Assembly: GCA_964600235.1 (NCBI GenBank)
Contig: CAZRIV010000001.1
Span: forward strand, 286,727-350,726
Length of the DNA: 64,000 nt
From: an uncultured Bacteriovoracaceae bacterium
Lineage (GTDB): Bacteria > Desulfobacterota > Desulfomonilia > UBA1062
Direction: 5' to 3'
The notes under the pieces are model-generated. The model made no database searches. It saw only the letters and a list, made by a program, of their open reading frames with translations, and was not told where the DNA came from. Positions 8,128 through 12,911 of this stretch are shown one piece after another. Each line of letters starts with the position of its first letter. Positions within the stretch are counted from its first letter, which is position 1. The position numbers and the translations under genes are program-made.

Positions 8128-10038
8128 CTACAGAGATATCTTTGCGGCAAATCTGTATGTCCTGCCCTGGACGGGATACCAGGAGGTGCCCCAGGATGAT
8201 TTGTAGACATATTCTGGTGACTGGTCATCCAGGAGGTTGTCTATCTTGAAGGATATGGTGGCGTTCCTGCTGACTTCCAGCAGGGCCCCGGCATTGAGCA
8301 GGTAACGGTTGTCCGTTTTTTCCGTATTGGCATCATCCTGGTACGAGCCCTTCCTGAATTGATATGCCAGGGAAAAGGTCGTGTTCCTGCCGGCTATCTC
8401 CGGCAGGTAATCGGCCTGGAGATTGAGCACCTGGTCGGGCCTCTGGCCGAGGTCGTTGCCCTTGTACGGCCCGCTTTCAAAGGTATTGCGGCTCAGGATG
8501 TAATTCGTTGAGAGCTTGCACACGCTGACGGGCGCCACCCAGGCGTTCGCCTCCAGGCCTGAAGACTGCGCCTTATTCACGTTGATGTAGGTAAAGCTGC
8601 CTTCTGATGGGTAATCCGCCTTGATGAGGTCGCGGTAGGCGGTAAAGAAGTAGTTGGCGCTGAAGCCGCAGGTGTTCAGGGAGACGGTCGGTCCCGCATC
8701 CCAGCTGAACGACCGCTCTGGCTCGAGATCAGGGTTGGGCACAAAGATGAAAAAACTCGATGAGGGGGCATAGAGCTTTCCCATGTCGGGAAGAAGATAG
8801 CCCGTGCCTGCATTCGCCTTTATCTGCACATGATCCATGACCTTGTATGCGAGACCTGCATGGTATGACCATTCATCGTCGAAATCCGAGCTGCTGTCAT
8901 ACCTGCCGACAAGCTCCATGAAAACCTTTTCCAGGTCTGCGGATGTCGATAAGGAGGCGCTGCCGTTGCTGCGGGAATGGGTGCCATAATCATCCGAGCG
9001 CATCCGTTCACCGAGGTATTCGGCCATGGGTGTGACGGTGAACATACCGAACTTCCTGGAATATGCGGCAGAGACGTTCCTGCTGTTCATCTTGGTCGTG
9101 TTGTCATTGCCCGGCCCCCATGAGGGTCTTTCATTCCTGGTCTCATTGGTCGATGCCCAGGTGCGCAGGGTGAAGGACTGATCCTCGGCCATGGACTTTC
9201 TGGATTCGAACAGGAACGTGTTCTGCGAACTGTCGATCCGGTCGTCGGGTGTCAGGTATCCGGGTTCGACCCCGGGCGATCCGTTCGACTGGTCGATGAA
9301 GTTGCCCATGAGCGAGCTCTGCCAACCCTGGACATCAAATACCGCCTTGAAAAGGCCTGTGGTGTTCTGTGTCGAGTTGTTCTCCCGTTTCGTCCATGAC
9401 CCGTCATCTCGTCTATATCGATAATCGTTGTCGGCAAATGCATGGGTGATGTTCGCCAGGAGGCCTGCCTGACCTGCCGAGGCGCTCGCATGGCCATGGT
9501 AGAGGCCATAGCCATAGGTTCCCTGTGATGTATAGAGGTCATATTCTTCCACTGGCCCCGGGCTCTGAGTAACGAGATTGACGATCCCTCCCATTGCCGA
9601 TTTCCCGAAGGCCGCACTGTTGCTGCCCTTGATGATCTCAATCCGTTCAATATCCGGGAGCATGAACTGTGACAGGTCCACCATGTCTCCAGTCAGGGGA
9701 TTAAGAGGTATGCCGTCTAAAGTGACGAGGGTCTGCCTGTAGCTGGAACCCCTGAGAGTCACTGGTGAGGTCGTTGCACCGCCGTAGTCGGAGTAATCTA
9801 CCGACGATGCCCTTCTCAGTGCCTCACCGGTATCGACAAGTCCTGCCGAGTCCGGGGAAGGGACGATGATGTCTGAAAAGGATGTCGGGGCCTTTTTCAC
9901 GACCGAGCCATCAGCCTTTTTTTCCACCGTGGGCGTGACAACGATTAAGATATCCGATGCCGCATGAGCTTGAGGGTGCAAAAATGCCCCAAGTACGAGA
10001 GCCGTGAGGAGAAACACAAACGCTTTCAGATGGTCCAT
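8128..10038 (-). CDS. btuB: TonB-dependent outer-membrane receptor, likely cobalamin (BtuB-like)
   Basis: Signal peptide, TonB-box/plug region (DIIV..., TLDGIPLN, IEIIKG), a large beta-barrel, and a cobalamin riboswitch in the 5' UTR. Confidence 0.8.
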   Translation of the reverse strand: MDHLKAFVFLLTALVLGAFLHPQAHAASDILIVVTPTVEKKADGSVVKKAPTSFSDIIVPSPDSAGLVDTGEALRRASSVDYSDYGGATTSPVTLRGSSYRQTLVTLDGIPLNPLTGDMVDLSQFMLPDIERIEIIKGSNSAAFGKSAMGGIVNLVTQSPGPVEEYDLYTSQGTYGYGLYHGHASASAGQAGLLANITHAFADNDYRYRRDDGSWTKRENNSTQNTTGLFKAVFDVQGWQSSLMGNFIDQSNGSPGVEPGYLTPDDRIDSSQNTFLFESRKSMAEDQSFTLRTWASTNETRNERPSWGPGNDNTTKMNSRNVSAAYSRKFGMFTVTPMAEYLGERMRSDDYGTHSRSNGSASLSTSADLEKVFMELVGRYDSSSDFDDEWSYHAGLAYKVMDHVQIKANAGTGYLLPDMGKLYAPSSSFFIFVPNPDLEPERSFSWDAGPTVSLNTCGFSANYFFTAYRDLIKADYPSEGSFTYINVNKAQSSGLEANAWVAPVSVCKLSTNYILSRNTFESGPYKGNDLGQRPDQVLNLQADYLPEIAGRNTTFSLAYQFRKGSYQDDANTEKTDNRYLLNAGALLEVSRNATISFKIDNLLDDQSPEYVYKSSWGTSWYPVQGRTYRFAAKISL

Positions 10039-10250: not shown

Positions 10251-10393
10251 GCTCTGATAGCAGATTGGTTTTGGGGTGTCAATCATGCCGGCAGCGACCA
10301 TGGAAGAGTTTTTCATCCCATATACCCGCCCTCCGGAGCAGCATCGAATTTTTCCTTGTTGCGCTTAGCGTGAATCTCTGGCATAGAGGGTTT

Positions 10394-10465
10394 ATGAAAA
10401 CAGTATCGGCACGCATATTTTTCGGCTATTATTTCTGGTTTAGGAAGTGGCCGCCTGTGGGCTGA
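10394..10465 (+). CDS. putative aromatic-amino-acid attenuator leader peptide (23 aa)
   Basis: ATG with an AGAGGG RBS encodes MKTVSARIFFGYYFWFRKWPPVG* (8 of 23 residues are Phe, Tyr or Trp). It sits immediately upstream of an intrinsic terminator and the DAHP synthase gene. Confidence 0.5.
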   Translation: MKTVSARIFFGYYFWFRKWPPVG

Positions 10466-10487
10466 GCTGTTCGTACGCGAGCACAAA

Positions 10488-10525
10488 GGCCGTGGGTGGT
10501 CACCTTCCCGCGGCCTTTTTCTTTT
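10488..10525 (+). terminator. intrinsic terminator / attenuator hairpin upstream of aroF
   Basis: GGCCGUGGG-uggucaccuu-CCCGCGGCC (9-bp stem with one G-U pair) followed by UUUUUCUUUU. It lies 22 nt after the leader stop codon and about 50 nt before the aroF start. Confidence 0.6.
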
Positions 10526-10574
10526 GGCCTGATGGAAGTGACGCACACGGCACATAAAAGTAAAGGAGGCTAGT

Positions 10575-11594
10575 GTGATCATTTCCATGAAAAAAAATGC
10601 TACTGCTGAAGAGATCGACCATGTCAAGACCCTCATCGAATCCTTCGGATACCGGGTTCATGAGAGTGTAGGTGCTGAAAGGGTCATCTTCGGCGCCATC
10701 GGCGACGAGAGGGGCAAGGAGAGGCTCACGTGCCTCGAGGCCCAGCCCGGCGTTGAAAAGGTGATCCGCATACTCACCCCGTACAAGCTCGCTTCCCGTG
10801 AGACAAAACCCGAACCCACTGTTGTCGACATTGGGATGGGCGTCAAGGTGGGAAACAGTAAGATAGCCATCTTTGCAGGACCATGCGCTGTGGAGTCCAG
10901 GGAACAGATCATGGAGGTTGCAAAGACCATCAAGGAGAGCGGTGCACATATCCTCAGGGGCGGCGCCTTCAAACCCAGGACCTCTCCCTATGCGTTCCAG
11001 GGGCTGAAGAATGACGGGCTCCTGCTCCTGTCCATGGCAAGGGAAGAGTACGGCATTCCCGTTGTCACCGAGGTGATGGACATCGGCAGCATCGAGGTAA
11101 TCCTCGAGAATGCCGACTGCCTCCAGATCGGGGCGCGCAATATCCAGAACTTCCAGCTCCTCAAGGAGGTCGGCAAGACGGAAAAACCGGTTCTCCTGAA
11201 GCGCGGCATGTCCACCACCATCGAGGAGTTCATCATGTCGGCCGAGTATGTCATGGCCGGAGGCAACAGCCAGGTTATCCTGTGCGAACGCGGTATCCGC
11301 ACATTCGAAACCGCCACGCGCAATACGCTCGACATTTCGGCCGTCCCGGTGCTCAAGGAAAAGACCCATCTCCCCGTCATCGTGGACCCCTCCCACGGTA
11401 CCGGCCATGCCCGCTATGTCGAGGCCATGTCCTATGCCGCCATTGCAGCCGGGGCGGACGGTCTCATGATAGAAGTCCACCCGAAACCCGAGGAGGCCCT
11501 CTCGGACGGACCCCAGTCCCTGAGGCCTGCAGAGTTCAGCAGGGTCATGGAGGGCATCAAGCGCATCGCCCAGGCCGTGGGGAGGGACGTATGA
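10575..11594 (+). CDS. aroF: 3-deoxy-D-arabino-heptulosonate-7-phosphate synthase, class I-beta with N-terminal ferredoxin-like regulatory domain
   Basis: GTG start with an AAAGGAGG RBS. The catalytic core reads GPCAVES...KPRTSPY...QIGARN...VDPSH, preceded by an N-terminal regulatory domain of about 70 aa as in Thermotoga-type DAHPS. 339 aa. Confidence 0.85.
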
Positions 11595-11638
11595 GGGCAT
11601 TGCATTTTGCCGGGTGCTTCACTACAATATGAATAAAT

Positions 11639-12166
11639 ATGGCTTACTTCATGCCCCAGCATAGAAGGGCCCTCCATTGCGGGTCAACCCTCGCCGAGGG
11701 GATCGTCTGCAAGGAACTGAGATGGAACGTACAGGGGGTCTATGACATCCAGACCTTTGCAGATCATGGTGCCCTTGAACTCAGGGAAGGCGTCTTTGCT
11801 CAGCTCGTGATGGTGGAGCTTGCAAAGGCCGCTTTACCGACCCACTATCGTGTCTGCCTTCATGATACCGAGATTTTGGCCTTTTTGCAGGAGAACCCAT
11901 CTGTTGATCTGCTCTCGTTCATTACCTTCATCATGACCCACGAGCTATTACATATTCACCGGTTTGCCACAGGCAAGGCCGACTTTTTTGGAGACCCTAA
12001 GGATGAAGAGCTTGTAGTGGACACCCTCACCAGGCTCTTCTTTGCGAAAAATCCCGTGACCGGTCTGAGAAAGGCCCTCGACATCCTTGACAAGGTGGAG
12101 GCGGCGCCACTATATAACGAGCACATCGTGAACGACCAAGGGAGGATTGTCCGTGCCTATTTATGA
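11639..12166 (+). CDS. hypothetical protein with HExxH motif (possible small metal-dependent hydrolase)
   Basis: 175 aa ORF carrying [12 protein letters not shown]. No confident family assignment from sequence alone. Confidence 0.45.
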
Positions 12167-12428
12167 ATATCAGTGCTTGAAGTGCCGGGGTGAATTCGAA
12201 GCCATGCAGAAATTCAGCGATTCTCCGATAAAGAAATGTCCATCATGCGGGGGTGCGGTCAGGAGGCTCATATCCCGGTCCTCTTTTCAGCTCAAGGGGT
12301 CGGGCTGGTACGTCACAGACTACGGCAAAAAGGGTTCTTCGGGCCGGAGCAAGGACTCAAGCAGTTCCTCCGAGTCCTCAACCGACGCAGTTCCTGTCTC
12401 CTCCACATCGAAATCCAATGACGACTAG
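12147..12428 (+). CDS. FmdB-family zinc-ribbon protein
   Basis: N-terminal [13 protein letters not shown]...KCPSCGG CxxC...CxxC zinc ribbon followed by a Ser-rich tail. Confidence 0.7.
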   Translation: MSVPIYEYQCLKCRGEFEAMQKFSDSPIKKCPSCGGAVRRLISRSSFQLKGSGWYVTDYGKKGSSGRSKDSSSSSESSTDAVPVSSTSKSNDD

Positions 12429-12437
12429 GTCAGTCAG

Positions 12438-12911
12438 ATGGCGTTGACCCACCTCGACAAGAAGGGCCGCATCACCATGGTAGACGTGGGCGAAAAGCCG
12501 CCTACGCGCCGCGTTGCCAGGGCGGCAGGGACGATCAGCATGAGCACGGAAGCCTTTGATGCCGCCACGTCCGACGCGTTGAAGAAAGGTAATGTCTTTG
12601 CCACAGCCAAGATAGCCGGCATCATGGCGGCTAAGAATACCGGCACCACCATCCCCCTGTGCCACCCGCTTCCGATAGATCATATAGAGGTTGAATTTCA
12701 TCCGGACAGAGCCACATCATCCATCAGGGCAGAGGCAACCGTCAAGGTTACCAGCCGGACCGGCGTCGAGATGGAGGCGCTGCATGCGGTGAGCGTAGCC
12801 CTGCTGACCATCTATGACATGGTCAAGGCTGTGGATAAGACCATGGTCATCAGCGATATACGACTTGAAGAGAAGTCAGGCGGCAGGGGCGGAACGTATA
12901 AGAGATCTTGA
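12438..12911 (+). CDS. moaC: cyclic pyranopterin monophosphate synthase accessory protein
   Basis: 157 aa; LTHLD...GRITMVDVGEK...KGNVFATAKIAGIMAAKNT...IPLCHPL are MoaC hallmarks. Confidence 0.9.
   Translation: MALTHLDKKGRITMVDVGEKPPTRRVARAAGTISMSTEAFDAATSDALKKGNVFATAKIAGIMAAKNTGTTIPLCHPLPIDHIEVEFHPDRATSSIRAEATVKVTSRTGVEMEALHAVSVALLTIYDMVKAVDKTMVISDIRLEEKSGGRGGTYKRS

Follow-up and report, generated by a model that had tools for sequence, protein, structure and literature searches.

The window analyzed here, a 64,000-nt stretch of contig CAZRIV010000001.1 from an uncultured bacterium, encodes a type I-beta 3-deoxy-D-arabino-heptulosonate 7-phosphate (DAHP) synthase (DAHPS), called aroF below. 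Immediately upstream of this gene lie a candidate promoter, a 23-codon open reading frame (ORF) rich in Phe, Tyr, and Trp codons, and an intrinsic terminator hairpin (Table 1). We describe this region as a putative leader-peptide attenuator of aroF that recurs in uncultured relatives. The RNA segments that pair in alternative ways are numbered 1 to 5 in the order of transcription.

Table 1. Features of the aroF leader and its surroundings (positions in the window)
Feature	Position	Strand	Remarks
TonB-dependent, BtuB-like receptor gene	8128-10038	−	Behind the cobalamin riboswitch; divergent from the aroF leader
Cobalamin riboswitch RF00174	10089-10254	−	83.7 bits, full length; sole gathering-score Rfam match in the window
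Putative −35 element, TTGCGC	10359-10364	+	Aligns with relatives' CTTGC/CTTGA box (alignment A1)
Putative −10 element, CATAGA	10382-10387	+	Conserved CATAnA/TATATA box, preceded by conserved TG(G)
Leader-peptide ORF	10394-10465	+	ATG 10394, TGA 10463-10465; 23 codons plus stop, MKTVSARIFFGYYFWFRKWPPVG*
Segment 1	10394-10415	+	5' strand of the 1:2 anti-antiterminator; pairs with 10456-10474 in the free fold
Regulatory codon run, codons 9 to 16	10418-10441	+	UUU UUC GGC UAU UAU UUC UGG UUU (F F G Y Y F W F)
Segment 2	10443-10474	+	10443-10463, antiterminator 5' strand; 10456-10474, 3' strand of 1:2
Further Trp codon of the leader ORF, W19	10448-10450	+	
Small hairpin P2	10468-10483	+	UGUUCG UACG CGAGCA; inside the antiterminator
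Terminator hairpin (segments 3 and 4)	10485-10518	+	AAAGGCCGUGGG (10485-10496) pairs with CCCGCGGCCUUU (10507-10518)
Terminator U-tract	10516-10525	+	UUUUUCUUUU; T-rich run kept in all relatives
Segment 5	10526-10541	+	GGCC...GGAAGUGA; pairs with the terminator loop and 3' arm
aroF Shine-Dalgarno sequence, AAGGAGG	10563-10569	+	See text for relatives
Type I-beta DAHP synthase (aroF-like)	10575-11594	+	339 aa; GTG start; NF006421 (501 bits); PF00793 and PF18152
orf175	11639-12166	+	175 aa; 44 nt downstream of aroF; HExxH motif (THELLH)
FmdB-family zinc-ribbon gene	12147-12428	+	Overlaps orf175
moaC	12438-12911	+	After fmdB

The leader peptide, MKTVSARIFFGYYFWFRKWPPVG, contains four Phe, two Tyr, and two Trp residues, so that 8 of its 23 residues are aromatic, as a first-pass annotation of this DNA had stated and as the sequence and the ORF table confirm. 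To judge this composition against chance, we compared the leader ORF with all ATG-started ORFs of 12 to 40 codons in the six frames of the window (n = 1001). The leader ORF alone has at least 7 aromatic residues within 10 residues; the runner-up has 5, and shuffled windows yield 0.01 ORFs as dense in aromatic residues. Base composition and chance therefore do not account for the leader ORF. An in-frame extension of the leader to 66 aa from a TTG codon (10265-10465, + strand) was rejected, since it spans the conserved promoter and is itself not conserved.

The terminator's GGCCGUGGG element begins at position 10488, 22 nt after the leader stop codon, and its stem carries an internal mismatch around a 4-nt loop. 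The hairpin is stable (−23.1 kcal/mol; z = −5.0; 0/200 dinucleotide shuffles equally stable), and the U-tract ends at 10525, 50 nt before the aroF GTG start at 10575. These values bear out the first-pass claim of a strong intrinsic terminator 22 nt after the ORF and about 50 nt before aroF. A consensus promoter/terminator scanner detected neither the leader promoter nor this terminator. The promoter was missed because the scanner thresholds are too strict for elements with 3/6 matches in each hexamer, and the terminator was missed because the rules want an uninterrupted stem with a loop of 3 to 8 nt, whereas the actual stem is interrupted. Conservation among relatives was used instead of the scanner to place the promoter.

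We scanned DAHPS homologs in one genome per species and obtained 17 loci (L001 to L017; 71 to 93% identity), all from metagenome-assembled genomes (MAGs) labeled Desulfomonilia, Thermodesulfobacteriota, or "delta proteobacterium." The element is found about 100 to 120 nt upstream of the DAHPS gene at all 17 loci; on one contig, its start is missing and the 3' part is visible. It comprises an in-frame ATG ORF of 22 to 26 codons with a PPVG-stop tail, a small hairpin, and the same terminator. As in the window, the leader stop codon lies in segment 2, and the peptide core [FY][FY]G[FY]YFW[FY] is conserved. Conservation upstream of orthologous aroF genes had been suggested as a check on the first annotation; the mini-ORF and its aromatic codons are kept in every relative in which they could be examined.

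A gene-blind scan of metagenome contigs with an RNA motif (CCGCCTGTGGGCTGA, a gap of 12 to 40 nt, and GGCCGTGGGTGG) returned 24 matches. In 23 cases the match precedes this same DAHPS gene by 70 to 86 nt; the 24th is on a contig that ends too early to show the downstream gene. The leader ORF is kept in frame by 16 related species-level genomes and by 23 metagenome contigs. Unique leaders number 29; they have lengths of 22 to 26 aa and contain 6 to 9 aromatic residues each (totals: F, 94; Y, 89; W, 39), with all three aromatic amino acids present in 26/29. The aromatic codons vary synonymously (TTT/TTC, 57/37; TAT/TAC, 78/11), aromatic-to-aromatic swaps also occur, and differences in ORF length amount to whole codons. 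A covariance model (R1), made from 30 sequences, detects a single full-strength copy at each locus (74 to 144 bits). In the window, it finds one full-strength copy (135 bits) and one other match of 24 bits, on the opposite strand of the same terminator region. No family in Rfam 15 matches the leader in the window (E values up to 10) or the leaders of 20 related loci; the models for Trp_leader, Phe_leader, His_leader, Leu_leader, Thr_leader, and T-box gave no match on the leader.

We then examined the pairings available to the leader RNA. RNAalifold, run on a MAFFT alignment of the 30 sequences, returned the terminator alone as the consensus structure; the remaining helices were specified and then tested pair by pair. 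The terminator (3:4) is 98.5% paired across the alignment (2 pairs altered on both sides; covariation score matched by 2/500 shuffles). The free leader (total of −51.5 kcal/mol; z = −3.1) folds into a long 1:2 hairpin, enclosing an inner hairpin that contains the aromatic codons, followed by the terminator. This 1:2 anti-antiterminator is 85% paired in alignment A1, with 11 pairs altered on both sides and a covariation score reached by 0/500 shuffles. The small hairpin P2 is likewise supported (85% paired; 3 pairs altered on both sides; 1/500 shuffles).

When the 5' part of the leader is masked, segment 2 (10443-10463, GGAAGUGGCCGCCUGUGGG.CU) pairs with 10487-10508 (AG.CCGUGGGUGGUCA.CCUUCC), forming a G.U-rich antiterminator helix (2:3) of 18 to 20 bp that uses the terminator 5' arm and loop. 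Segment 2 takes in the PPVG codons and the UGA stop. In the window, this helix has a folding energy of −37.3 kcal/mol (z = −4.3; 0/200 shuffles equally stable), and it is predicted separately in all 17 sequences ascertained by protein (−23 to −42 kcal/mol). It is 91% paired in those 17 sequences (4 pairs altered on both sides; 0/500 shuffles) and 89% paired in the full set of 30 (9 pairs altered on both sides; 0/500 shuffles), compared with just 41 to 54% in controls in which the 3' partners were slid by 1 to 3 columns. The changes in its outer part are compensatory: GGAAG:CUUCC is replaced by GGGAG:CUCCC, GAGA:UUUC, AGGGAGAA:UUCUUCCU, or UG:CA plus GGC:GCC. The 1:2, 2:3, and 3:4 helices are mutually exclusive, and each is supported by covariation. 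The fold check proposed in the first-pass annotation thus recovered both an antiterminator and a terminator, which share the terminator 5' arm and loop and which covary. The specific alternative proposed there, in which the 3' end of the leader pairs with the terminator 3' arm, did not hold up: it showed no covariation, and one of its pairs formed in just 3/17 sequences. In the pair-by-pair test it was rejected (83% paired; 0 pairs altered on both sides; 471/500 shuffles), and its 83% pairing reflects conserved bases rather than covariation. What is conserved instead is a predicted helix between the leader 3' end and the terminator 5' arm and loop.

These data also bear on the simplest alternative, that a chance ORF happens to sit beside an ordinary terminator insulating aroF from upstream transcription. 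In favor of this idea, the aroF leader shares a 536-nt intergenic region with a divergent, riboswitch-controlled gene. However, there is no co-directional gene upstream of the leader for the terminator to serve; the terminator (10485-10525) therefore ends no upstream transcription unit and lies inside the aroF leader. With an aromatic density that is unique in the window and conserved in about 40 sequences, and with alternative pairings that covary, the idea is scarcely credible and is already contradicted by the conservation data.

Two further pairings were observed downstream of the terminator. Segment 5 can form a post-terminator hairpin (10500-10541, + strand) in whose loop the U-tract sits. 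This hairpin is predicted in 11/11 relatives folded (z of −2.4 to −4.7 in 10/11; 86% paired in alignment A1; 0/500 shuffles), and it forms too late to influence the termination decision. In addition, AUGGAAGUGACGCAC (10532-10546) can pair with the aroF start region GUGUGAUCAUUUCCAU (10573-10588), with the Shine-Dalgarno (SD) sequence in the loop. This pairing is confined to a close clade with a GTG start and, in masked folds, does not depend on the state of the attenuator. We rejected state-dependent sequestration of the aroF SD sequence, since its unpaired probability is equal in the free and antiterminated folds. We also rejected a longer chain in which 1:2/3:4/5:6 alternates with 2:3/4:5 to free the aroF start, since 5:6 is confined to the close clade and the start is paired in both states.

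Upstream of the leader ORF, a TTGnnn box, a 17-nt spacer, and a −10 box form the best arrangement in 27/30 unique upstream regions, and in 24/30 unique sequences, 6 to 7 nt separate the end of the −10 box from the A of the leader ATG. Because of this conserved spacing, the transcript would start at or next to the AUG, and translation of the leader ORF is probably leaderless. The "plausible RBS" (ribosome-binding site) of the first-pass annotation corresponds to GAGGG (10386-10390), a candidate site that exists in the window and is not conserved: an SD-like 4-mer at −16 to −4 precedes 3/30 unique leaders, versus 15/16 unique relatives for aroF.

The missing SD sequence, together with a highly structured RNA containing several conserved helices, would also fit an ORF that is not translated at all, with the RNA acting as a ligand-, protein-, or tRNA-binding attenuator (riboswitch, T-box-like, or TRAP-like) and the reading frame being incidental. 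We regard this as highly improbable. No Rfam family, T-box and riboswitch models included, matched at E values up to 10. The codons vary, yet the 6 to 9 aromatic identities are kept, as are the frame, its ATG, and the position of its stop, and leader length changes in whole codons. Moreover, conservation among single-stranded stretches peaks exactly at the aromatic codon run, and a promoter that puts the AUG at the 5' end accounts for the absent SD sequence.

From these sequence features, we estimate a probability of about 0.85 that the aroF leader is a classical ribosome-mediated (leader-peptide) transcription attenuator controlling DAHP synthase. An attenuator of this type, sensing Phe, Tyr, and Trp, had been proposed in the first-pass annotation, and both the conservation and the covariation of the three pairings support it. 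In the model, the conserved promoter would start transcription at the leader AUG or beside it. With ample Phe-, Tyr-, and Trp-tRNA, the ribosome would pass through the aromatic run to the UGA and cover segment 2; the 3:4 terminator would then form, and polymerase would stop about 50 nt before aroF. Without translation, segment 1 would pair with segment 2, and the terminator would again form. When Phe-, Tyr-, or Trp-tRNA is short, the ribosome would stall within the regulatory run and prevent 1:2, leaving segment 2 free to form the antiterminator (10443-10463 with 10487-10508), and polymerase would read into aroF. Because the run holds codons for all three amino acids, a shortage of any one should derepress aroF.

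To follow the switch with a ribosome in place, we computed equilibrium folds in which the ribosome was masked as a footprint reaching 12 nt beyond the A-site codon. With the ribosome at the stop codon, segment 2 is covered and the terminator alone forms. With the ribosome at about codons 7 to 13 (including F9, F10, Y12, and Y13), the antiterminator or an open 3' arm results in the window and in most close relatives. Several points weigh against the attenuator model. In the window, stalls at F14 to F16 (codons 14 to 16) still favor the terminator at equilibrium, and at L010, L011, L014, L015, L016, and L017 no stall position, or just one, displaces the terminator as the minimum-energy structure. 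The cores of 2:3 and of the terminator are near-invariant, so that covariation comes mostly from the outer helix parts. With no conserved SD sequence (3/30), translation of the leader ORF hangs on the predicted leaderless start. Finally, the metagenome matches were chosen by an exact-match pattern and are not independent evidence for the conservation of that pattern, and all carriers are uncultured MAGs or metagenome contigs.

Since the terminator wins at equilibrium in L010, L011, and L014 to L017, the switch in these relatives would need a kinetic decision. Attenuator decisions are generally thought to be kinetic, and the antiterminator is stable alone before segment 4 exists, even where the terminator wins at equilibrium. 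In these unfavorable cases, 2:3 would have to form ahead of the transcription of segment 4, and here the model is at its least secure.

The PPVG tail of the leader peptide raises the question of a second input. PPVG is present in 28/29 unique leaders, and among the 17 sequences found by protein, 5/6 kinds of change in PPVG and the stop codon are synonymous (CCG>CCA, GTG>GTA, GTG>GTC, GGC>GGT, and TGA>TAA; the exception is GGC>GAC). Pro-Pro is a known slow-translation motif. Such conservation, with codon changes that are mostly synonymous, could indicate that PPVG-stop is a programmed pause or arrest site, EF-P dependent or engaged in TnaC-like ligand sensing, through which the element would respond to translation capacity or, via the nascent chain, to free aromatic amino acids, instead of or besides tRNA charging. 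We consider this distinctly unlikely. Both the 2:3 and the 1:2 helix have the CCGCCUGUGGGCUGA nucleotides at their core, and the changes observed are pairing neutral (G.U to A-U, C-G to U-G) or lose a single pair. PPVG invariance therefore needs no peptide role, because RNA pairing constraints explain it. In addition, the classical switch works without arrest, the tail has no resemblance to TnaC, and 24 of the sequences were selected by this exact pattern. That the PPVG-stop tail is a functional pause or arrest module beyond RNA pairing, adding a second input besides tRNA charging, is likewise unlikely. If it were, the module would hold the terminating ribosome on segment 2 through an EF-P-dependent Pro-Pro pause or sense free aromatic amino acids via the aromatic-rich nascent chain, much as TnaC senses Trp.

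We also considered a role in trans, besides the one in cis, for the 23-aa peptide or for the terminated leader RNA (~130 nt). Attenuator products with such an additional function have been described, namely rnTrpL and peTrpL of Sinorhizobium meliloti (PMC6614838, PMC7298713), and here the peptide tail and the post-terminator hairpin are conserved beyond the needs of the simplest model. However, no target is indicated, RNA pairing and the regulatory codons explain the conservation of the peptide, and the extra hairpin lies downstream of the termination point and hence outside the terminated RNA. A role in trans is thus very unlikely.

The product of the regulated gene aligns over its full length to PDB 1RZM/3PG9 and carries an N-terminal ferredoxin-like domain (PF18152, residues 1 to 67). 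This is the allosteric domain of the Thermotoga-type DAHP synthase, and its presence agrees with the N-terminal allosteric domain named in the first-pass annotation. Two-level control, by attenuation of transcription and by feedback on the enzyme via the ferredoxin-like domain, is plausible. A 366-aa ORF on the opposite strand (window 10500-11600) is antisense to aroF and is probably no gene.

Downstream of aroF, the genes through moaC are separated by gaps of ≤44 nt. The order aroF-orf175-fmdB-moaC is kept in 14/17 relatives, and orf175 is present in 15/17; the orf175 product has no Pfam or NCBIfam match. Given the short gaps and the synteny in relatives, these genes may be co-regulated with aroF, and by this arrangement orf175, fmdB, and moaC are probably also under the attenuator. 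On the other side of the leader, the divergent cobalamin riboswitch is syntenic in 11/16 relatives, and the attenuator stays with aroF in five relatives without it.

Leaders were also observed on DAHPS genes in other lineages. In Methylomirabilota MAGs (L019 to L024 and L043), a different, W/F-rich leader (e.g., MPSSRWVWRFTFTGVCPVGADPGRR and MHGTWRAWWLSFTGVCPVGAGTGRR) occupies the stretch from about 210 to 60 nt before the start of the orthologous DAHPS. Unlike the window family, these leaders have no Tyr codons and have two tandem terminators, the 3' arm of the first being complementary to the 5' arm of the second. With masking, these leaders show a clean alternation of antiterminator and terminator folds, the behavior expected of a classical attenuator. 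Homology between the two leader types was not accepted, since model R1 reaches just E values of about 0.04 to 0.1, and they are treated as separate families. An Oscillospiraceae MAG (L054) has an aromatic-rich mini-ORF, MITVANNRFYFYFYFISLFNKVFFGLQQRIYEK, and then a terminator before a type I-beta DAHPS; masked folds of this leader showed no clear antiterminator. In a Thermodesulfobacteriota MAG (L018), a mini-ORF, MNVVFYFMNLIFRVYSRLYYYFIKSAQSPEFDS, and then two terminator-like hairpins precede DAHPS. Aromatic-rich mini-ORFs also occur before type I-beta DAHPS at L026 and L076, in other lineages. The Methylomirabilota attenuator and the mini-ORFs of other phyla suggest that leader control of DAHP synthase is wider than the two published cases compared below.

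Taken together, the aroF leader points to control of entry into the shikimate pathway in uncultured Thermodesulfobacteriota (Desulfomonilia-type MAGs from peat, sludge, and digesters). One leader would read the charging of all three aromatic tRNAs, and allosteric control of the enzyme would add on top. The leaders make up a well-defined RNA family outside Rfam; it comprises about 30 unique sequences, has three alternative helices that all covary, and is linked to a single gene, and it could improve annotation of these genomes. With its probable leaderless start, the aroF leader would add a case of leaderless regulatory ORFs outside Actinomycetota, the group from which they are best known. Attenuation as textbooks describe it is unchanged by the aroF leader.

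Like the enterobacterial trpL-trpE and pheL-pheA systems (and those of his, leu, thr, and ilv), the window has a short ORF rich in codons for the end product and four RNA segments with 1:2, 2:3, and 3:4 alternatives. It also shares with those leaders a stop codon whose position lets a terminating ribosome block segment 2 and an intrinsic terminator just before the biosynthetic gene. Unlike them, its regulatory run mixes Phe, Tyr, and Trp codons instead of those for one amino acid, its target is the first enzyme of the common pathway rather than a branch enzyme, its ORF has no conserved SD sequence and is probably leaderless, and its antiterminator is unusually G.U rich.

The first-pass annotation treated a mixed leader on a common-pathway enzyme as unusual. 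That was overstated, since two precedents exist, the AroR leader of aroF in Corynebacterium glutamicum and an Acholeplasma upstream ORF (uORF) before aroF. The AroR (Phe-Tyr-Phe) leader, which has been studied by experiment, lies before aroF (cg1129) in C. glutamicum (Neshat et al. 2014, as reviewed in PMC11802643 and PMC4046766). Phe limitation raises read-through, and Tyr supply is reportedly without effect (PMC11802643, PMC4046766). As far as those descriptions go, AroR resembles the window leader in having a mixed aromatic leader with attenuation upstream of a DAHP synthase gene; it differs in having three regulatory codons, none of them for Trp, and in belonging to Actinomycetota rather than Thermodesulfobacteriota. 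The likeness between the two is one of function. The enzyme under AroR control belongs to a different DAHPS subclass.

In Acholeplasma and some environmental sequences, uORFC-13-1 is a conserved uORF with promoter-like boxes and an RBS, directly followed by an intrinsic terminator and found exclusively before aroF; it contains a U-run coding for at least one Phe and has been proposed to sense Phe incorporation (PMC8632094). In contrast to uORFC-13-1 as described in that publication, the window family has 6 to 9 F/Y/W codons and no conserved RBS and belongs to another phylum. Leaderless polycysteine short ORFs attenuate downstream operons in mycobacteria (bioRxiv 10.1101/834739). The window leader is similar in that a regulatory short ORF rich in codons for the operon's amino acid lies at the transcript 5' end; it differs in amino acid and phylum, in its canonical terminator/antiterminator pair, and in a leaderless start that is predicted from promoter spacing. 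The window family is set apart by its taxon, the number and mix of its regulatory codons (including Trp), the lack of an RBS, the G.U-rich antiterminator, and the post-terminator hairpin. We conclude that the aroF leaders form a well-supported new leader family, uncatalogued in Rfam, that very probably uses the known attenuation mechanism.

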